From assembly GCA_007128045.1 (NCBI GenBank), contig SKYG01000123.1:1-48381 (forward strand): a stretch of DNA of 48,381 nucleotides, in the 5' to 3' direction. Under the pieces are notes generated by a model. That model was not told the DNA's origin. It searched no databases and saw only the letters and a program-made list of their open reading frames with translations. A program made the position numbers and the translations under genes. The DNA comes from Bacteroidales bacterium. Its GTDB lineage: Bacteria > Bacteroidota > Bacteroidia > Bacteroidales > UBA7960. Shown here one piece after another: positions 11,508 through 38,005 of this stretch (the stretch's first letter is position 1; every line of letters begins with the position of its first letter).

Positions 11508-12080
11508 TTATTTTAGCATGACAGCAAGCCTGGCCACCCGTTCGCCCAGCCCCCTTGCCTTGTCCAAAAAAGCAGAATGAACTCCTTCTTCATTGTCAAA
11601 AGGGTACTCCGACACAATGGCTGATGCGCCAAACGGTGATTTCCAGTCGGGACCTCCCACAACAACCATTCCAAATATAAGCATCGACTGTAAGATGTTC
11701 ATTTGGGTGATCTCCTCACCAGCCGACATCCCACCTGCCGTCACAAACGCTGCGCCGATCTTATCTTTTAATGGCTGTCCCTGAAAAGGCCAATCAGAAA
11801 TAAATTGCTGTACCTCTGGTGAGACATTTGCATTATAGACCGGACTTCCAACAATAATAGCATCTGCAGCAAGCAAGTCAGGAGTCGTGGTCTTATCAAC
11901 CGTTTTCATGATCACAGTAACCCCTTCAACCACCCTTGCACCCTCTGCAACTGCTTCTGCCATAGCCGCGGTATTACCAGTCTTACTGTGATAGGAGATT
12001 AAAACCGTTACCTGACCCACCAAGGCATTATTTGCAAGTAAAGTAACAGCTACTGCGAACAACATTACGGCAACTTTCAT
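11508..12080 (-). CDS. Flavodoxin-like fold protein (WrbA/NAD(P)H-quinone reductase-like) with a hydrophobic N-terminal segment
   Basis: Start called at ATG 12080 (MKVAVMLFAVAVTLLANNALVGQ...). The 30 upstream in-frame codons belong to a repeat element. The segment ISYHSKTGNTAAMAEAVAEG is a flavodoxin-type FMN phosphate-binding loop. Confidence 0.7.
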   Translation of the reverse strand: MKVAVMLFAVAVTLLANNALVGQVTVLISYHSKTGNTAAMAEAVAEGARVVEGVTVIMKTVDKTTTPDLLAADAIIVGSPVYNANVSPEVQQFISDWPFQGQPLKDKIGAAFVTAGGMSAGEEITQMNILQSMLIFGMVVVGGPDWKSPFGASAIVSEYPFDNEEGVHSAFLDKARGLGERVARLAVMLK

Positions 12081-12187
12081 GTGTTTATTTTTTTCCCTTT
12101 GACCTTCGACCTTCGACCTTTGACCCCCATGAAAAACAATCATGCGTCTGTGTGTCAAAGTGTTTGTCATGGGTATTTCATGTGTTT
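12081..12187 (-). repeat. About 100-nt start-codon-abutting repeat element, well-conserved copy
   Basis: In gene orientation it reads AAACACATGAAATACCCATGACAAACACTTTGACACACAGACGCATGATTGTTTTTCATGGGGGTCAAAGGTCGAAGGTCGAAGGTCAAAGGGAAAAAAATAAACAC|ATG. It is near-identical to the copies at 31588, 33222 and 35937. Confidence 0.9.
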
Positions 12188-12291
12188 AAAATTGTCTGAA
12201 TGTCTGAATGTCGAAAAGTCAAAAAAAAGGGGAAATCTTTTAATCATGCGTCTGTGTGTCAATGCGTTTATCATAGACGTGTCATGTGTTT
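12188..12291 (-). repeat. Degenerate tandem second copy of the same element
   Basis: It keeps the core AAACACATGAC..ATGATAAACGCATTGACACACAGACGCATGATT. The heptamer block is replaced by CATTCAGA-type octamers (plus strand GTCTGAAT x2). Confidence 0.75.
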
Positions 12292-25386: not shown

Positions 25387-26436
25387 TCAATGATCAGGGT
25401 CAGTGGCCTGGTATGGGGTAAGATCATATAGAGAATCCCTGAGTCTGACTGTTTCACGTATTCTGGTGATGCAGCGTCGGGCCTCTGTCAGGTTCAGCGA
25501 CTGGTCGCCGTCAGAAACAGCCCGTTCAGGCACTTCATGTATCTCCATCAGCAGGCCGTCGGCACCCGCCATCACGGCGGCAAGCGCCATGGGTTCAACA
25601 TACGCACGTACACCCACTCCATGCGATGGATCGACAAAAACCGGGAGGTGGCTTTTTTCCTTTAAATACGGAACGGCATTGAGATCGAGGGTGTTTCGGT
25701 ATGCTGTTTCATAGGTTCTGATGCCACGCTCACAAAGAATGACCTTTTCATTGCCGTTAGAAAATATATACTCTGCCGAGGCAAGCAGCTCCTGCAATGT
25801 AGACGACATACCCCTTTTCAGCAACACTGGTTTATTAACTTTGCCAAGCTCATCAAGCAGGTTGAAGTTTTGTGAGTTACGGGTGCCAACCTGATAGATA
25901 TCAATGTAGTCATGCATCTCTTCGACCTGTGATACCTGCATCACTTCACTAACAACCTTTATCCCATTGGCCTGGCAGTGTTTGTAAAAGAACTTTAGCC
26001 CCTCCAATCCGTGACCCCGGAAAGAATAGGGCGAGCTGCGTGGTTTGTACACGCCACCACGCATCAGGGCAACACCATTCTCTTTCAGAAAACCTACTAT
26101 CCGGATTACCTGTTCCTCATCCTCAATAGAGCACGGCCCCATCCCAATGGTCAAATGATCCCTTGATATCACTATCCCATCGCCAAGAGGAATTTCGGTT
26201 GTCTGAACCTTCCACAGGCGCGACACCAGTTTGCTCTGGTCGGCAACCACATGAACATCTTTGATGCCATTCAGGTTTCCAATAATCCGGATGTCTACCT
26301 CCGCAGAGCCTACACAGATAACATAACGGCCATATTGGGTTACAACCTCAGAAGGTTTATATCCCAAGGATTTCACAACAGAAACTATCTCCTGAAAGTC
26401 CTTATCATTGCAATTGTCTTTTAGTTGGATAAGCAT
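25387..26436 (-). CDS. 3-deoxy-7-phosphoheptulonate (DAHP) synthase, type I-beta, with an N-terminal ferredoxin/ACT-like regulatory domain
   Basis: 349-aa ORF. The core (GPCSIE...KPRSSPYSFRG...VDPSH) is KDO8PS-like type I-beta. About 75 extra N-terminal residues resemble the regulatory domain architecture of Thermotoga-type DAH7PS. It starts 14 nt after trpA. Confidence 0.8.
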   Translation of the reverse strand: MLIQLKDNCNDKDFQEIVSVVKSLGYKPSEVVTQYGRYVICVGSAEVDIRIIGNLNGIKDVHVVADQSKLVSRLWKVQTTEIPLGDGIVISRDHLTIGMGPCSIEDEEQVIRIVGFLKENGVALMRGGVYKPRSSPYSFRGHGLEGLKFFYKHCQANGIKVVSEVMQVSQVEEMHDYIDIYQVGTRNSQNFNLLDELGKVNKPVLLKRGMSSTLQELLASAEYIFSNGNEKVILCERGIRTYETAYRNTLDLNAVPYLKEKSHLPVFVDPSHGVGVRAYVEPMALAAVMAGADGLLMEIHEVPERAVSDGDQSLNLTEARRCITRIRETVRLRDSLYDLTPYQATDPDH

Positions 26437-31012: not shown

Positions 31013-31587
31013 TAAATTTTAGCCAGCCAATTCATGATCATCCGTTTACCATCGGGGGTAAGTATTGATTCCGGATGAAACTGCACCCCGCAAATATCCC
31101 ATTCTTTATGACTGATCGCCATGATCCTGCCTTCATCATCATAGGCATCAACCTGTAAACAATCCGGGAAGCCGTTCTTGTCTGCAATCCATGAATGATA
31201 CCGTCCGGCCATAAATGTATTGTTCACCCCATCAAACAGGTAATGAACCGGTTCATTAAGATGGATGTTGGTTGCCACACCATGATACACCTTGCTGATA
31301 TTCTTCAGCTTCCCGCCAAATGACTCTGTGATGGCCTGCAGTCCCAGGCAAACGCCCAAAATACGCTTACTACTTTTATACCTGTCTATAACAGCAAGCA
31401 ATAAACCAGCCTCATCAGGAAGACCAGGGCCAGGCGACAAAATGATCCCGTCAAACGCCTCCACCTCATCAAGGGTAAGTTCATCATTACGCTTTACCTC
31501 AACCTGAAATCCTTCTGCTTCACGTACATAGTGAACCAGGTTATACGTGAATGAATCATAATTATCCAGTACAAGAATTTTTTTCAT
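31012..31587 (-). CDS. trpG: Anthranilate synthase component II (glutamine amidotransferase)
   Basis: Start called at ATG 31587 (MKKILVLDNYDSFTYNL). The catalytic triad region is GVCLGLQ...HPES. The 30 upstream in-frame codons belong to the repeat element. Confidence 0.9.
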   Translation of the reverse strand: MKKILVLDNYDSFTYNLVHYVREAEGFQVEVKRNDELTLDEVEAFDGIILSPGPGLPDEAGLLLAVIDRYKSSKRILGVCLGLQAITESFGGKLKNISKVYHGVATNIHLNEPVHYLFDGVNNTFMAGRYHSWIADKNGFPDCLQVDAYDDEGRIMAISHKEWDICGVQFHPESILTPDGKRMIMNWLAKI

Positions 31588-31684
31588 CTGTTTATTTTTT
31601 TTCCCTTCGACTTTCGACCTTTGACCCCCATGAAAAACAATCATGTGTCTGTGTGTCAAAGCGTTTATCATGGGCATTTCATGG
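31588..31684 (-). repeat. About 100-nt start-codon-abutting repeat element inside the trp operon (trpE-trpG spacer)
   Basis: In gene orientation it reads CCATGAAATGCCCATGATAAACGCTTTGACACACAGACACATGATTGTTTTTCATGGGGGTCAAAGGTCGAAAGTCGAAGGGAAAAAAAATAAACAG|ATG. Confidence 0.9.
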
Positions 31685-31708
31685 TATCTTATTCCAATAT
31701 ACTTTTAT

Positions 31709-33121
31709 TCACAAACTAAATTGTTCTGCCAGCTTTATTGCCTTGCGCAAGGCAGATATTTTTCCGTTTACTTCCTTTAACTCACCCTCTTCACTGGAGT
31801 CGATAACCACACCGGCCCCGGCCTGATAAACAAGTTTCCCACGTTTGCTCATAAAGGAACGTATCATAATGGCATGGTTTAGGCTTCCCCCCAGCCCCAG
31901 TATTCCAATGGCGCCACCATAAAAGCCCCTGGCCGTGCCTTCATAACTATCAATCAGTTGGATGGCTTTGTGTTTTGGTGCGCCAGACAAGGTTCCGGCA
32001 GGAAAGGTGTCGGCAAACAACCGGTAGTTGTTGTTGGTGCGAAACATCTTACCTTTAACGGTCGACACCAGGTGAATAACATGTGAGTATGTATGCACCT
32101 CTCTGAATGTTTCAACAGTTACATCATCAGAATGCTTACTTAAGTCATTGCGCGCCAAGTCAACAAGCATACAATGCTCCGCATTTTCTTTCTCGTTCTT
32201 TAGCAGATCAGCTATCAATGCGGCATCCTCGTCCGGACTACCGGTTCTGATGACTGTTCCGGCTATGGGGTTGATAACAGCTATTCCATCACTGATCCGG
32301 AGTTGGGCTTCGGGTGATGAGCCAAACAGCTTGTAGCTCAAGTAGTCGAAGTAAAAAAGATACGGTGACGGATTGATAGAACGAAGAGCCCGGTAAACAT
32401 TAAATTCGTCGCCGGAAAAGTTCTGTTCGAAGCGGCGTGACAAAACAATTTGAAACACATCTCCTCTGGCGCAGTGCCTGATTCCGTTTCTGACCATTTC
32501 CATAAAACGTTCGTCGCTGACGGGGGTAAATTCTTCACCAGTGGCCATAAACGGGAAGCTGGTTGCATTTCTGTTTGCCAGAAGAGACATTACCTTGGAA
32601 ATCATAGACTTTTCACCTTCGGCAATTAACTCCGTGATGCTTAATGTATTGTTAAAGTGGTTGAAGGCAATAACCACCTGGTACAGGTCATACCTGAGTA
32701 AAGGGATGCGATCAGCATCTGCCTCAGGTGATGTGATATTCACATTGTCGAACAAGCTCACTGCATCGTAAGAGGTATAGCCAAACAATCCAGGCATGGT
32801 CTTTTCGCTGAAGTCACCTTCTATTTTGATGGTTCCAAGATACTGGTCAATCAAATTTGATACGGCATGATACCCTTCGAAAGAAAGATGATCATCTGCC
32901 TGGCCCCTTTTTCTGAGGTAAAAATTGTCTGCACTGGCCTCGAAGCCCATGATGGGAGTCAGACAAATATAGGAGTATGAATCATGCCGGGAGCTGTAGT
33001 CTGAACACTCCAGCAATAAACTCTGCGGAAAAGCATCCCGCAAACGAAGGTATATTCCCACAGGCGTGTATGTGTCTGCCTGCAAATGTATTGTCGTTGC
33101 CTTTAATCTGATATCGTTCAT
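31709..33121 (-). CDS. trpE: Anthranilate synthase component I
   Basis: 470-aa ORF. The chorismate-binding C-terminal domain carries GTLSGAPK and GGAIG motifs. Confidence 0.9.
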   Translation of the reverse strand: MNDIRLKATTIHLQADTYTPVGIYLRLRDAFPQSLLLECSDYSSRHDSYSYICLTPIMGFEASADNFYLRKRGQADDHLSFEGYHAVSNLIDQYLGTIKIEGDFSEKTMPGLFGYTSYDAVSLFDNVNITSPEADADRIPLLRYDLYQVVIAFNHFNNTLSITELIAEGEKSMISKVMSLLANRNATSFPFMATGEEFTPVSDERFMEMVRNGIRHCARGDVFQIVLSRRFEQNFSGDEFNVYRALRSINPSPYLFYFDYLSYKLFGSSPEAQLRISDGIAVINPIAGTVIRTGSPDEDAALIADLLKNEKENAEHCMLVDLARNDLSKHSDDVTVETFREVHTYSHVIHLVSTVKGKMFRTNNNYRLFADTFPAGTLSGAPKHKAIQLIDSYEGTARGFYGGAIGILGLGGSLNHAIMIRSFMSKRGKLVYQAGAGVVIDSSEEGELKEVNGKISALRKAIKLAEQFSL

Positions 33122-33221
33122 GTGTTTATATTTTTTCTTTTGACCTTCGACCTTCGACTTTTGACCCCATGAAATATAATCATCCCCATGTGTGTCAAAA
33201 CGTTTGTCATGGGAATTTCAT
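33122..33221 (-). repeat. Repeat element, trpE-proximal copy (divergent)
   Basis: In gene orientation it reads ATGAAATTCCCATGACAAACGTTTTGACACACATGGGGATGATTATATTTCATGGGGTCAAAAGTCGAAGGTCGAAGGTCAAAAGAAAAAATATAAACAC|ATG. Paired substitutions CTTTGAC>TTTTGAC and GTCAAAG>GTCAAAA are present. Confidence 0.9.
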
Positions 33222-33326
33222 CTGTTTATTTTTTTCCCTTTGACCTTCGACCTTCGACCTTTGACCCCCATGAAAAACAATCATGCGTCTGTGTGTCAAA
33301 GCGTTTGTCATGGGTATTTCATGTGT
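33222..33326 (-). repeat. Repeat element, trpE-distal copy (consensus-like), in tandem with the proximal copy
   Basis: It is essentially identical to the copies at 12081-12187 and 35937-36043. Confidence 0.9.
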
Positions 33327-33345
33327 ATATAATTTGCTATAACAG

Positions 33346-33379
33346 CAAGAGCCCACTTAACATGTTAAGCGGGCTCTTG
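33346..33379 (-). terminator. Candidate trp attenuator hairpin (15-bp stem)
   Basis: On the minus strand it reads CAAGAGCCCGCTTAA-CATG-TTAAGTGGGCTCTTG, with one G-U pair. It lies 31 nt downstream of the Trp-leader stop. The trailing CUGUUAU is only moderately U-rich. Confidence 0.55.
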
Positions 33380-33410
33380 TATCAGTTAATATCTAATGAA
33401 AGTAGCTGTA

Positions 33411-33485
33411 TTATAGACCTGAACGCTTAACAACATTGCTGTCGCTGCGCCACCACCAAAAGAATACAGTACTTAAACGGCTCAT
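33411..33485 (-). CDS. trpL: trp operon leader peptide (24 aa, three consecutive Trp codons)
   Basis: ATG 33485 to TAA 33413-33411 gives MSRLSTVFFWWWRSDSNVVKRSGL. TGG TGG TGG lies at 33458-33450. It is not in the ORF track because it is shorter than 60 aa. It lies upstream of trpE on the same strand and is followed by a hairpin with an alternative pairing partner inside the peptide coding region. Confidence 0.75.
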   Translation of the reverse strand: MSRLSTVFFWWWRSDSNVVKRSGL

Positions 33486-33506
33486 TTCTTTGTTCATTTA
33501 CGAATA

Positions 33507-33540
33507 CAATATTACATATTTTTTTTCAGACATCCACAAA
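33507..33540 (-). promoter_or_regulatory. Candidate promoter for the trp leader and operon
   Basis: On the minus strand, TTTG (33540-33537), a 22-nt spacer, and TAATATTG (33514-33507). The -7 box ends about 21 nt before the leader ATG. The spacer is 1 nt longer than the usual 19-21. Confidence 0.35.
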
Positions 33541-33575
33541 CATTTGTTTAATTTTTTTGAATTATTTTTTCAATG

Positions 33576-33607
33576 TTTGTTTTTTAACAAAAAAAAGACT
33601 AATATTG
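33576..33607 (+). promoter_or_regulatory. Candidate promoter for the phe/tyr leader and the pheA operon
   Basis: TTTG (33576-33579), a 20-nt spacer, and TAATATTG (33600-33607). It has one mismatch to TAnnTTTG. The leader ATG lies 29 nt downstream. Confidence 0.4.
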
Positions 33608-33636
33608 CAGTCGATTTTACAACAATACCGATAGTT

Positions 33637-33699
33637 ATGAAATTATTCACTGCTTTTTTTAGCTTTTACTTTTACTTCTTTAGCAACAAAGGGGCGTGA
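33637..33699 (+). CDS. Phe/Tyr-rich leader peptide (20 aa)
   Basis: ATG 33637 to TGA 33697-33699 gives MKLFTAFFSFYFYFFSNKGA, with 7 Phe and 2 Tyr in residues 4-15. It is the C-terminal part of the spurious 87-aa tracked ORF 33436-33699. It is followed by a canonical intrinsic terminator immediately before pheA. Confidence 0.8.
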   Translation: MKLFTAFFSFYFYFFSNKGA

Positions 33700-33742
33700 A
33701 ATTGTGTGTGTTAATTGAAAAAATAAAATACATAAAGAACCA

Positions 33743-33769
33743 GGCCCCGCGATTGCGGGGTTTTTTTTT
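33743..33769 (+). terminator. Intrinsic terminator (attenuator) 9 nt upstream of the pheA start
   Basis: The stem is CCCCGC (33745-33750) with GCGGGG (33755-33760) and the loop is GATT. It is followed by T9 (33761-33769). The pheA ATG is at 33778. Confidence 0.8.
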
Positions 33770-33777
33770 GACTATAT

Positions 33778-34632
33778 ATGACGAAGAAAATTGCGATACA
33801 AGGTATCCGGGGCGCATTCCATCATGAGGCTGCCGCTCTGTATTACAAGAGCCAATTTGACATCTGCGAATGCATGACTTTTCACCACCTTATCGAAGCT
33901 GTTGAGGCAGGCGATGCAGATATAGGTGTGATGGCCATTGAAAACTCTATGGTAGGCAGCATGTTGCCCAACCTTGCCCTGATACGCAAATCAACCCTGC
34001 ATATCGTGGGAGAGGTATATATGCGTATCTCCCAAAATCTGATGGCATTGCCGGGAGAAAGCATCCAAACCTTGCAGGAAGTGCATTCGCATCCGATGGC
34101 CATCATGCAATGCGAAAGCTTTTTTCATAACCTTCAGGATATTAGGATGGTTGAGTCTGTCGACACGGCACTAAGTGCTAAAGAGATCAGCGAGAACCAA
34201 TTAAAAGGTATTGGCGCCATTGCCAGTGAAGCAGCTGCAAAGATCTACGGCCTTGACATTCTGGCGCCATCCATAGAAACAAATAAAAAGAACTACACCC
34301 GGTTTCTTATACTGGGACACAACGGAAACTCAATTGATCCGGCTATCCCGGTCAAGGCAAGCGTGGCATTTGTAGCTCCGCACCTGCCCGGCAGCCTGGC
34401 AGCCGTTTTACAACCCCTGGCAGAGGCAGGTGTAAACCTAAGCATGGTGCAATCACTGCCATTGATTGGCGCCAACTGGGAATATATTTTTCATGCCGAC
34501 ATGATCTTTCAAAATATTGCTTCCGCAAGAAACATCATCAATGACCTGCGAAAAAAGCTACAGGCAACATGGGTGATGGGCATCTACCCATCCAGTCCTG
34601 AAATTCAAGACAACACCAAAATGAAATTGTAA
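33778..34632 (+). CDS. pheA: Prephenate dehydratase (PDT domain plus C-terminal ACT domain)
   Basis: 284-aa ORF. IAIQGIRGAFHHEAA, TRF(L)ILG and ACT-region motifs are present. There is no chorismate mutase domain. Confidence 0.85.
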   Translation: MTKKIAIQGIRGAFHHEAAALYYKSQFDICECMTFHHLIEAVEAGDADIGVMAIENSMVGSMLPNLALIRKSTLHIVGEVYMRISQNLMALPGESIQTLQEVHSHPMAIMQCESFFHNLQDIRMVESVDTALSAKEISENQLKGIGAIASEAAAKIYGLDILAPSIETNKKNYTRFLILGHNGNSIDPAIPVKASVAFVAPHLPGSLAAVLQPLAEAGVNLSMVQSLPLIGANWEYIFHADMIFQNIASARNIINDLRKKLQATWVMGIYPSSPEIQDNTKMKL

Positions 34633-35813: not shown

Positions 35814-35936
35814 TCAACATGTTTGACACACCGGCGCATGCTGACAGGCACCGGGTGAGATCCCGAACATGCGTTCGGGACTTCGCTTCGCTCAGCTGTT
35901 CGACATTCAGACTTTCAGACATTTTGACTAAAAAAT
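35814..35936 (+). repeat. Degenerate upstream copy of the start-codon-abutting element
   Basis: It retains CATGTTTGACACACCGGCGCATG, then an 8-bp hairpin TCCCGAAC-ATGC-GTTCGGGA, then CATTCAGA/CTTTCAGA octamers and an A-rich end. Confidence 0.6.
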
Positions 35937-36043
35937 AAACACATGAAATACCCATGACAAACGCTTTGACACACAGACGCATGATTGTTTTTCATGGGGG
36001 TCAAAGGTCGAAGGTCGAAGGTCAAAGGGAAAAAAATAAACAC
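35937..36043 (+). repeat. About 100-nt start-codon-abutting repeat element (reference copy)
   Basis: AAACACATGAAATACCCATGACAAACGCTTTGACACACAGACGCATGATTGTTTTTCATGGGGGTCAAAGGTCGAAGGTCGAAGGTCAAAGGGAAAAAAATAAACAC|ATG (tyrA start at 36044). Confidence 0.9.
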
Positions 36044-36889
36044 ATGAATATTTGTATTGTAGGTATCGGTTTAATCGGGGGATCTATAGCCATTGATTTG
36101 CGCAATAGGGGTTTTGCAAAACAGATCATCGGTGTTGACAGCAATCCGCACCACGCCACCATCGCGAAGCACAGTAAGTTGGTTGACGATATAGACACCC
36201 TGGAGAATGGGATAGAAAGGTCAGACCTCATCATCCTGTCAACCCCCATTGACTCTATCAAAAAACTACTTCCCAGAGCATTGGATTCTGTAACAGGAAC
36301 CAAAAAAGTCATTACCGATATGGGATCTACCAAAGGTGGGATGAGTAGTCTGGTAGAAAATCATCCAAACAGAAAAAACTATGTTGCCGCACATCCTATG
36401 GCCGGGACAGAATATTCCGGACCACTTGCCGCCATCGGCAAACTGTTCGACTATAAATGCGCCATCATATGCGACAAGGAGAAAAGTAGTCCGCAAGCTT
36501 TAAAGGTGGTGAAAAAAATGTTTGATGTTCTGAACATGAAGGTAATTTACATGAATGCCAATGAGCACGATGTAAGTGCAGCCTATGTATCACACATCTC
36601 CCATATTTCGTCATTTGCCCTGTCGTTATGCGTACTGGAAAAGGAAAAGGATCAAAAACGTATACTAAGCCTGGCCAGTGGTGGGTTTGCCTCTACCGTG
36701 AGGCTGGCCAAAAGTTCGGCTGACATGTGGACGCCGGTATTTGAACAAAATTCGATGTATGTACTTGAAGTGTTAGACACCTATATCGAAAAATTGAAGA
36801 TGTTTAAAGCCTATATCGAAAGCAACAACCAGAAAGGCATAACCGATCTTATATTGGAAGCAAATAAAATTCAGAAAATACTTAACTAA
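36044..36889 (+). CDS. tyrA: Prephenate dehydrogenase
   Basis: Start called at ATG 36044, giving MNICIVGIGLIGGSIA (a Rossmann GxGxxG right at the N-terminus). AHPMAG motif. The 30 upstream in-frame codons are repeat-element sequence. Confidence 0.85.
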   Translation: MNICIVGIGLIGGSIAIDLRNRGFAKQIIGVDSNPHHATIAKHSKLVDDIDTLENGIERSDLIILSTPIDSIKKLLPRALDSVTGTKKVITDMGSTKGGMSSLVENHPNRKNYVAAHPMAGTEYSGPLAAIGKLFDYKCAIICDKEKSSPQALKVVKKMFDVLNMKVIYMNANEHDVSAAYVSHISHISSFALSLCVLEKEKDQKRILSLASGGFASTVRLAKSSADMWTPVFEQNSMYVLEVLDTYIEKLKMFKAYIESNNQKGITDLILEANKIQKILN

Positions 36890-36916: not shown

Positions 36917-38005
36917 ATGAAAAACCTGGCCCCTATTCTTCCCATTGAGAACTGGGAAAATTATAAACAACGCCCGCTCGTTATTGCAGGACCCTGCAGC
37001 GCTGAAACAGAAAAGCAGGTGTTGCAAACAGCCATCGAAATAGCAGAAAGTAAAAAAGTAGATATTTTCAGGGCAGGGCTCTGGAAGCCAAGGACAAGAC
37101 CCGGAACCTTCGAAGGTGTGGGAAGTGTCGGGTTGCCCTGGCTGAAAAGGGTCAAGGAAGAAACGGGCTTGCCTGTTGCTACAGAGGTGGCAAACGCCAA
37201 ACATGCTTATGAAGCACTGAAGTATGGTATCGACTATATCTGGATAGGAGCACGTACAGCCGTCAATCCTTTCGCCGTGCAGGAAATTGCCGACTCATTG
37301 GAAGGGTCAAACGTGGGTGTTATGATCAAAAATCCTATAAATCCAGACCTGGACCTGTGGATGGGCGGTATAGAACGCATCCGAAAAGCAGGAATCTCAA
37401 AGATTGCGGCCATACACCGCGGATTCTCCAACTATGAGAAAACCCAATACAGAAACATCCCCCACTGGCAGCTGGCCGTAGAGCTGAAACAACTGATGCC
37501 CGATTTGCCCGTAATTTGCGACCCAAGTCATATTACAGGCGACTCATCCCTGCTGTATGAAGTTTCCCAAAAAGCGATGGACCTGAACTATGAAGGGCTG
37601 ATGATAGAAACACATATTGACCCCGAGCATGCATTGAGCGATGCCGCACAACAGGTCACCCCCAACGAACTAAAGGAAATACTCAGCAGACTCATTATGA
37701 GAAGTCCGGTTTCGAGCGATAAAGGATTTCTCGATGTGCTGGGCGAGCTGAGAAGCCAGATAGACCTGTTCGACGACCAACTGCTGAATATACTGGAACA
37801 ACGGATGAACGTGGCAAAGACCATCGCCAAGTATAAGAAGGAAAACAATATCACCATCCTTCAAACCAAACGGTGGACAGAGATCATCAAAAAGAGTATT
37901 GCCAAAGGAGAACAGAAAGGACTGAGCAGCGAGTTTATCGACACATTGTTCAAAGCCATTCACCAGGAGTCAATCAACCACCAGACCAAGATAATGAACG
38001 AATAA
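36917..38005 (+). CDS. Bifunctional DAHP synthase (type I-beta) / chorismate mutase (C-terminal AroQ domain)
   Basis: 362-aa ORF. The N-terminal 260 aa are DAH7PS-like (GPCSAE...KPRTRPGTFEG...CDPSH). The C-terminal about 90 aa are AroQ-like (LRSQIDLFDDQLLNILEQRMNVAKTIAKYK...). This fusion type is described for Porphyromonas and Prevotella. Confidence 0.85.
   Translation: MKNLAPILPIENWENYKQRPLVIAGPCSAETEKQVLQTAIEIAESKKVDIFRAGLWKPRTRPGTFEGVGSVGLPWLKRVKEETGLPVATEVANAKHAYEALKYGIDYIWIGARTAVNPFAVQEIADSLEGSNVGVMIKNPINPDLDLWMGGIERIRKAGISKIAAIHRGFSNYEKTQYRNIPHWQLAVELKQLMPDLPVICDPSHITGDSSLLYEVSQKAMDLNYEGLMIETHIDPEHALSDAAQQVTPNELKEILSRLIMRSPVSSDKGFLDVLGELRSQIDLFDDQLLNILEQRMNVAKTIAKYKKENNITILQTKRWTEIIKKSIAKGEQKGLSSEFIDTLFKAIHQESINHQTKIMNE

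Follow-up and report, generated by a model that had tools for sequence, protein, structure and literature searches.

A divergent trpE-pheA control region with two probable leader-peptide attenuators in an uncultured Bacteroidales bacterium

How might a bacterium adjust the flux into all three aromatic amino-acid branches from a single short spacer? This question is raised by contig SKYG01000123.1, a stretch of 48,381 nucleotides (nt) that is referred to here as the window. It stems from an uncultured Bacteroidales metagenome-assembled genome (MAG; 84% complete, 3.1 Mb), whose nearest pheA relatives are sediment MAGs with approximately 62% identity. In the window, trpE (31709-33121, minus strand, ATG at 33121) and pheA (33778-34632, plus strand, ATG at 33778) lie back to back, and an earlier note on this DNA had proposed that the intervening segment carries one attenuator for tryptophan (Trp) and another for phenylalanine and tyrosine (Phe/Tyr), both preceded by matching -7 boxes. 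Following up this proposal, we conclude that 33346-33769 is likely to be a divergent control region in which two promoters are combined with two transcription attenuators of the classical leader-peptide type. The open reading frames (ORFs), boxes and helices described below are demonstrated, as are their conservation and covariation.

Both leader ORFs, which had been claimed to start 151 nt apart on opposite strands, were recovered from the sequence and the ORF list. The Trp leader ORF (33411..33485, minus strand; ATG 33485, stop 33411) encodes the peptide MSRLSTVFFWWWRSDSNVVKRSGL and places three consecutive UGG (Trp) codons (33458-33450) upstream of the trp operon. The Phe/Tyr leader ORF (33637..33699, plus strand) encodes MKLFTAFFSFYFYFFSNKGA with 8 Phe and 2 Tyr, so that 10 of the 20 codons ahead of pheA/tyrA specify Phe or Tyr (F/Y). 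Between the two leader ATGs lie exactly those 151 nt (33486-33636).

On the Phe/Tyr side, the leader is followed by a canonical intrinsic terminator, GGCCCCGCG-AUUG-CGGGGU then U9 (33742..33769, plus strand, hairpin 33742-33763; -15.3 kcal/mol), which was the best match of the terminator scan and ends 8 nt before the pheA ATG. An alternative partner for its 5' arm is the antiterminator strand AGCAACAAAGGGGCGUGA (33682..33699, plus strand), which overlaps the final leader codons and the stop codon; the resulting duplex (-18.4 kcal/mol, z -4.4) has a value reached by 0 of 1000 shuffles. When the nascent transcript was folded up to the terminator loop with the ribosome footprint masked, the antiterminator held the 5' arm (P ~0.56-0.69) as long as the ribosome occupied codons 1-15, which include all F/Y codons, and released it (P ~0.10-0.22) with the ribosome at codons 16-20, while an intermediate value of 0.34 was obtained at the stop codon. 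The leader accordingly contains an antiterminator that uses the terminator 5' arm and can be masked by a ribosome that has reached the ORF end but not by one stalled at the regulatory codons.

This arrangement suggests the following course of events. A transcript from the predicted start at ~33612 would encode the 20-codon leader with its 10 Phe/Tyr codons, and a ribosome facing scarce charged tRNA-Phe or tRNA-Tyr would stall within the F/Y run. The ORF-end segment AAAGGGGCGUGA would then be left free to pair with CCAGGCCCC in the terminator 5' arm, and read-through would proceed into pheA, an aminotransferase gene, tyrA, the gene for a 3-deoxy-D-arabino-heptulosonate 7-phosphate (DAHP) synthase/chorismate mutase fusion and probably aroB-aroA-aroC. 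Under ample supply, a ribosome at the last codons or the stop codon would mask the segment, and the GC hairpin with its U9 would end transcription 8 nt before pheA.

The minus strand offers a corresponding set of helices. Trp regions 1 and 2 form a hairpin (33423..33450, minus strand; fold -10.3 kcal/mol) that begins with the final base of the third Trp codon, and region 2 contains the antiterminator strand GUUAAGCG (33431-33424, minus strand). Further downstream lies a terminator-type hairpin (33346..33379, minus strand; 15 bp, CAUG loop, -23.2 kcal/mol), whose 5' arm CGCUUAAC can alternatively pair with region 2. The 2:3 duplex between region 2 and this arm amounts to -14.7 kcal/mol (z -2.3), a value reached by 2.5% of shuffles. 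A transcript from the predicted start at ~33502 would encode the Trp leader with its three successive Trp codons; a ribosome stalled on them would cover region 1 (CGCAGCGACAG), and the freed region 2 (UGUUGUUAAGCG) would pair with CGCUUAACA, which belongs to the 5' arm of the hairpin of 15 bp, and thus block the latter. If no stalling on the Trp codons occurred, the hairpin would form before trpE-G-D-C-F-B-A and a further DAHP synthase gene. Amino-acid-dependent read-through on both sides is inferred, as is the efficiency of termination by the Trp hairpin, which here has to act without a U tract.

Much of the case is carried by the comparison with relatives. When the DNA of 40 relatives was searched with the control region, nothing emerged but short matches to AT-rich or terminator sequence; since the region is too divergent at this level, protein-anchored loci were used instead, namely the best 80 pheA loci on one-genome-per-species contigs (78 with sufficient upstream sequence) and the best 80 trpE loci. 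An F/Y-rich mini-ORF is present 5' of pheA in ~74 of 78 Bacteroidia loci, and behind the Phe leader a hairpin with a T run is present in 71 of 74 cases. A segment complementary to the terminator 5' arm lies within ~20 nt of the Phe leader stop (median z -2.7 versus shuffles). Likewise, a leader with WW or WWW precedes trpE in 73 of 79 loci from Bacteroidia, Flavobacteriia, Chitinophagia and Cytophagia.

Within the family, alignments of 17 Trp sequences (A2) and 12 Phe sequences (A3) permitted the helices themselves to be assessed. In A2, pairing of the terminator stem is complete (100% of cells), with compensatory changes in 5 of 10 pairs. The Trp antiterminator joins GUGUU(A/G)AGCG from the 3' portion of the leader ORF with (C/U)GCUU(A/G)ACA in the terminator 5' arm and loop, and this pairing is kept in 97.4% of cells, compared to 29-41% in slid controls. 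Two partners covary with column 106, namely leader column 38 in the antiterminator (GC 6, AU 5, GU 4) and column 123 of the 3' arm in the terminator (CG 7, UA 6, UG 4), a pattern characteristic of helices that exclude one another. For the Trp 1:2 helix, in which the antiterminator strand meets the segment just past WWW, 77.5% of cells are paired, compared to 18-55% in slid controls. In A3, the Phe antiterminator pairs GGGG(C/U)NUGG(U), which codes for a final Gly-Ala-Trp or stop, with (A)CCAG(G/A)CCCC in 88% of cells (23-67% when slid); the terminator is 97% paired, and column 96 covaries with both antiterminator and terminator partners. Taken together, the comparative data support a classification of the two leaders as genuine and conserved attenuators of the leader-peptide type. 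The observation made in the earlier note is confirmed, and its interpretation is in good part supported, with the reservation that the terminator on the Trp side is devoid of a U tract (see below).

Further features are seen in the Phe/Tyr leader regions of some relatives. In L112 (RPRQ01000033.1), whose trpE-pheA spacer has ~300 nt of additional sequence, pheA is preceded by a tandem pair of F/Y-rich leaders, and a separate terminator belongs to each of them (MISHNMNFYASFYYFFFYGSRGLAICVK-type and MNSQGQSYYFFFYFFYRQNHGD-type). In addition, a GC hairpin with a T run occurs immediately 5' of the F/Y leader in many Bacteroidia loci (L037-L041, L044, L053, L085, L088, L092, L094 and L098), where it may either act as another attenuator in tandem or terminate the gene that precedes it.

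Initiation of the two leader transcripts can be tentatively assigned as well. The consensus promoter of Bacteroidota consists of a -33 element TTTG and a -7 element TAnnTTTG (PMC7366714), the latter occupying -12 to -5 relative to the transcription start site (TSS; PMC9723704), with a usual distance of ~19-21 nt from the TTTG to the box. The matching -7 boxes of the earlier note are indeed present: the candidate for the Trp leader, TAATATTG, is located at 33507..33514 (minus strand; TTTG at 33540-33537, 22 nt upstream), and that for the Phe/Tyr leader, TAATATTG(CA), at 33600..33607 (plus strand; TTTG at 33576-33579, 20 nt upstream). From these positions we infer start sites at ~33502 and ~33612, which predict 5' untranslated regions (UTRs) of ~17 nt and ~25 nt, respectively. 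In the 3.1-Mb assembly, TAATATTG occurs 179 times, of which 24 are outside long open frames; only 5 of these 24 have a TTTG 17-23 nt upstream, and two of the five are the window boxes, which lie 85 nt apart on opposite strands. Given this rarity, the paired boxes exceed what is expected by chance.

Both boxes are conserved where the leader -7 boxes of relatives are situated, and they are kept in L033, L111 and L112, the three other genomes with the divergent arrangement. Among the family Phe promoters, TAnnATTG is found in 11 of 11 cases, and the distance to the first F/Y triplet downstream is 50-64 nt, in most cases 55. The family Trp promoters (n=19) are more varied, with A at position 5 in 9 (8 TAATATTG, 1 TATTATTG), C in 7 (TATACTTG) and T, the consensus form, in 3; their boxes precede WWW by 56-61 nt in 17 of 19 cases, the other two being consensus-form boxes at 43 and 96 nt. 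Remoter Bacteroidia have an ordinary TAnnTTTG at the corresponding place. This conservation and the fixed distance to the regulatory codons across genera indicate that both TAATATTG boxes very probably serve the leader promoters as -7 elements. These would constitute two back-to-back, non-overlapping promoters, presumably read by the Bacteroidota housekeeping sigma factor. A sigma-70 promoter scan is uninformative for this phylum (30 matches versus 30.5 expected).

A second ATG lies upstream and in frame at 33497 and would extend the Trp leader peptide by MNKE. Initiation there, approximately 5 nt from the predicted TSS, would render the Trp leader nearly leaderless; this was rejected as the preferred start because the geometry of ATG 33485, 29 nt past the box start, equals that of other family members (27-30 nt), and because the upstream ATG is common only to L111 and L222. 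Predicted near-leaderless Trp leaders do occur elsewhere: in 19 of 29 trpE loci with a perfect TAnnTTTG, mostly from Tenacibaculum and Polaribacter (including L116, L117, L125, L127, L130, L141-L144, L148, L152, L155-L157, L163, L175, L177 and L184), no more than 13-16 nt separate the start of the box from the ATG of the Trp leader, which would leave a 5' UTR of 1-4 nt and a nearly leaderless leader peptide, this being a prediction only. The predicted UTRs of Phe leaders measure 14-21 nt by comparison. In the Phe promoter region of the window, a 13-nt perfect inverted repeat (TTATTTTTTCAAT / ATTGAAAAAATAA, at 33562-33574 and 33714-33726) has one arm in the DNA 5' of the -33 element and the other where the Phe leader transcript has its loop region. 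It may be a chance product of AT-rich sequence, as its first arm is outside the predicted plus-strand transcript.

Several observations weigh against a control region with two promoters and two attenuators. Both boxes deviate from TAnnTTTG by one mismatch (A at position 5), and no perfect TAnnTTTG was found on either strand in 33100-33800. In the own genome, TAnnTTTG is three-fold enriched 15-60 nt 5' of long ORFs (246 sense versus 83 antisense), whereas TAnnATTG is not enriched (48 versus 49). For the Trp leader, equilibrium folds computed with a masked ribosome did not yield a clean switch, and in full-length equilibrium folds of the Phe/Tyr leader the terminator prevails at all ribosome positions other than codons 9-11, which means that the switch must be kinetic and co-transcriptional, as in the classical cases. 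The equilibrium folds being unhelpful, we relied on nascent-transcript folding, duplex statistics and covariation. Moreover, searches of the entire window against Rfam at gathering threshold gave no match, and neither leader reaches a gathering score. The Phe/Tyr leader scores 34.4 bits against RF01859 (Phe_leader; E 0.0011), below the gathering score of 55, and RF01692 (gathering 49 bits) had no match in 32900-34000 even at E up to 10. Finally, the Trp hairpin was called as a terminator neither by the T-run scan nor by the general terminator scan; at the position where relatives carry U5-U10, it is followed by the degenerate tract CUGUUAUAGC (33336..33345, minus strand).

It is the last of these points that nourishes a different account of the Trp side, namely a weakened or decaying attenuator whose leader and helices are inherited but which terminates poorly, so that the trp operon would be largely constitutive or otherwise controlled, be it by Rho acting on the ~290-nt untranslated stretch or by effects of inserted repeat cassettes. 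The silence of the terminator scans fits this account, as does the lack of a T run after the hairpin, given that the T-run scan finds a canonical terminator with T4 or more at this place in 70 of 75 relatives' trpE loci and that L033, L111 and L112 have U5-U9; an imperfect, interrupted tract is also seen in one relative, L234. So does the presence of two tandem copies of a dispersed ~100-nt repeat (33122..33345, minus strand; 81-90% identical, 51 matches in the own assembly), by which ~225 nt of mobile sequence part the Trp hairpin from the trpE ATG. The repeat itself did not delete the U tract, however, since its insertion point is 23 nt past the hairpin, and 6 U are still present in the tail UUGCUGUUAU. 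A strong hairpin with an imperfect U tract can still terminate when helped by factors. The leader ORF, WWW, GUUAAGCG and the perfect 15-bp stem are intact, which argues for continued selection and favours continued use of both helices. We therefore consider decay possible but rather unlikely, with the caveat that the performance of the Trp-side sensor in this genome cannot be judged from sequence alone. A related suggestion, an extra and leader-independent promoter within the trpE-proximal repeat copy (TATATTTC, 33178-33171, minus strand, with TTTG 17 nt upstream), builds on the sole other minus-strand box with one mismatch that has a -33 TTTG. Its mismatch eliminates the terminal G of the box, the box is missing from the other repeat copy, and further support was not found, which makes such a promoter very unlikely.

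The deviating boxes, in turn, could be taken for more than weak housekeeping elements, that is, for a dedicated promoter class (TAATATTG / TAnnATTGCA) that co-regulates initiation of both aromatic operons atop attenuation, whether as a deliberately sub-optimal housekeeping box, as the site of an alternative sigma factor or as an overlapping operator. Position 5 is A in all 11 family Phe promoters and the consensus T in only 3 of 19 Trp promoters (A 9, C 7), TAnnATTG is not a general promoter form in the genome, and of only 5 such sites genome-wide 2 are in the window spacer. Yet common ancestry together with a tolerated weak box accounts for this pattern equally well. No palindromic operator was found, conservation is limited to the box and T-rich blocks, and the 27 TAnnATTGC[AC] sites outside long ORFs in the own genome include none at another leader-bearing or amino-acid operon that would indicate a wider regulon. 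On balance, such a class appears improbable. The same holds, if anything more so, for the specific proposal that the trp and phe/tyr leader promoters of the family share a -7 box kept non-consensus by selection (TAnnATTG(CA), replaced by TATACTTG in one genus) and set to low strength or else read by a factor other than the plain housekeeping sigma, with joint control of initiation as a second layer above the attenuators; we mention it as a doubtful speculation. That the small ORFs and hairpins merely arose by chance in an AT-rich spacer, for which nothing speaks except the small size of the ORFs, is refuted by the comparative data (recurrence in ~150 loci, covariation and conserved positions) and can practically be dismissed.

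The gene content of the flanking operons speaks for the reading as a divergent region with two promoters and two attenuators. The minus-strand arm comprises trpE, trpG, trpD, trpC, trpF, trpB, trpA and a stand-alone type I-beta DAHP synthase (25387-26436, minus strand) at its end, and the plus-strand arm comprises pheA, the aminotransferase, tyrA, a DAHP synthase fused to chorismate mutase (36917-38005, plus strand), aroB, aroA and aroC. Each divergent arm thus has a separate DAHP synthase, and entry into the common pathway would accordingly be divided between a Trp-sensing and a Phe/Tyr-sensing attenuator. The notion of a hub that sets flux into three aromatic branches is hence in line with the gene content, which fits control of the Trp, Phe and Tyr branches, but it is weakened on the Trp side by the missing U tract and the ~225 nt of repeat before trpE. 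Further copies of the dispersed repeat are located at 12075-12193 (-), 31582-31693 (-), 35935-36048 (+) and ~48210 (-). The repeat occurs in sense orientation directly 5' of start codons (trpE, trpG and tyrA), with its 3' end contributing an A-rich stretch and ATGAA.

Synteny of the hub in related genomes, which the earlier note had suggested as a check, is of limited range. Divergent trpE-pheA adjacency was found in just two genera, the own one and a sister genus (G001, G011 and G018, apparently equivalent to L111, L033 and L112, respectively), and is absent beyond these. In one further genus, pheA and trpE are 4.2 kb apart on one contig; outside the adjacency genera, the two leaders occur separately. 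Among the 61 family genomes searched (own included), a pheA homologue was detected in 28 and trpE in 25, which shows that aromatic amino-acid biosynthesis is patchy in this family; many members may be auxotrophs, although some of the assemblies (G001-G076) are incomplete.

How does this region relate to known systems? Attenuators in Bacteroidetes/Chlorobi are reported to have been predicted by Vitreschak and co-workers in 2004. The novelty implied in the earlier note was overstated, as both Trp and Phe/Tyr attenuators have already been described in this Shine-Dalgarno-poor phylum (PMC2864571, PMC9723704). In Flavobacterium psychrophilum, the pheA-aspC3 leader MNTNNTFYSNNSFYFYWNIGRDCYMVI was reported by Guerin et al. 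in 2021 (PMC9723704, SI Appendix D9, Table S7), and the pheA, trpE and hisG leaders of this organism exhibit condition-dependent read-through and co-expression (PMC9723704, supplement). The pheA-aspC3 element resembles the one described here in its short ORF with tandem Phe/Tyr codons, its GC hairpin and U tract directly before pheA and an aminotransferase gene, and its housekeeping-type -7 promoter, all within the same phylum. However, it belongs to the class Flavobacteriia, its peptide and RNA cannot be aligned with those of the window, it has no trp leader as a back-to-back neighbour, and the non-consensus TAATATTG box is a property of the window.

For the Trp leader, the closest precedent is Bacteroid-trp (Rfam RF01692; Weinberg et al. 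2010, PMC2864571), which similarly features a WWW leader ORF and a terminator 5' of Bacteroidota trpE. This model matches Flavobacteriia trpE loci from Polaribacter and Tenacibaculum (L152 with 56.9 bits, L116 with 49.7 bits), whereas the Bacteroidales form has another helix set (GUUAAGCG/CGCUUAAC) and, in this genome, lacks the U tract. The logic of both elements is that of Escherichia coli trpL-trpE and pheL-pheA (RF00513, RF01859), where regulatory codons are followed by alternative 1:2, 2:3 and 3:4 helices and the position of the ribosome chooses between terminator and antiterminator; the Trp side in particular follows trpL. In contrast to E. coli, members of this phylum are not expected to use a Shine-Dalgarno sequence, the Phe/Tyr leader of the window mixes Phe and Tyr codons and would also control tyrA, and the two attenuators occupy one divergent spacer. 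While both attenuator types are already known from Bacteroidota, the Bacteroidales instance, the back-to-back placement and the common non-consensus box are new.

These findings do not change the textbook mechanism of attenuation, but they bear on how it is recognised and deployed in this phylum. The Phe/Tyr leader family is near-universal before pheA in Bacteroidia, and no Rfam model reaches gathering score at it, be it in the window or at 20 other Bacteroidia pheA-leader loci; as the Rfam Trp model misses the Bacteroidales form and the Phe/Tyr leaders remain below threshold, current annotation under-reports both. The conserved departure of the -7 box from consensus and the missing U tract behind the Trp hairpin offer handles on promoter strength and on the requirements of termination in a phylum whose transcription and translation signals are unusual. 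Two amino-acid sensors would be accommodated in a spacer of ~420 nt, each of them placed over a branch and its own DAHP synthase isozyme, and attenuation would here attain what E. coli attains by TyrR- and TrpR-controlled isozymes.

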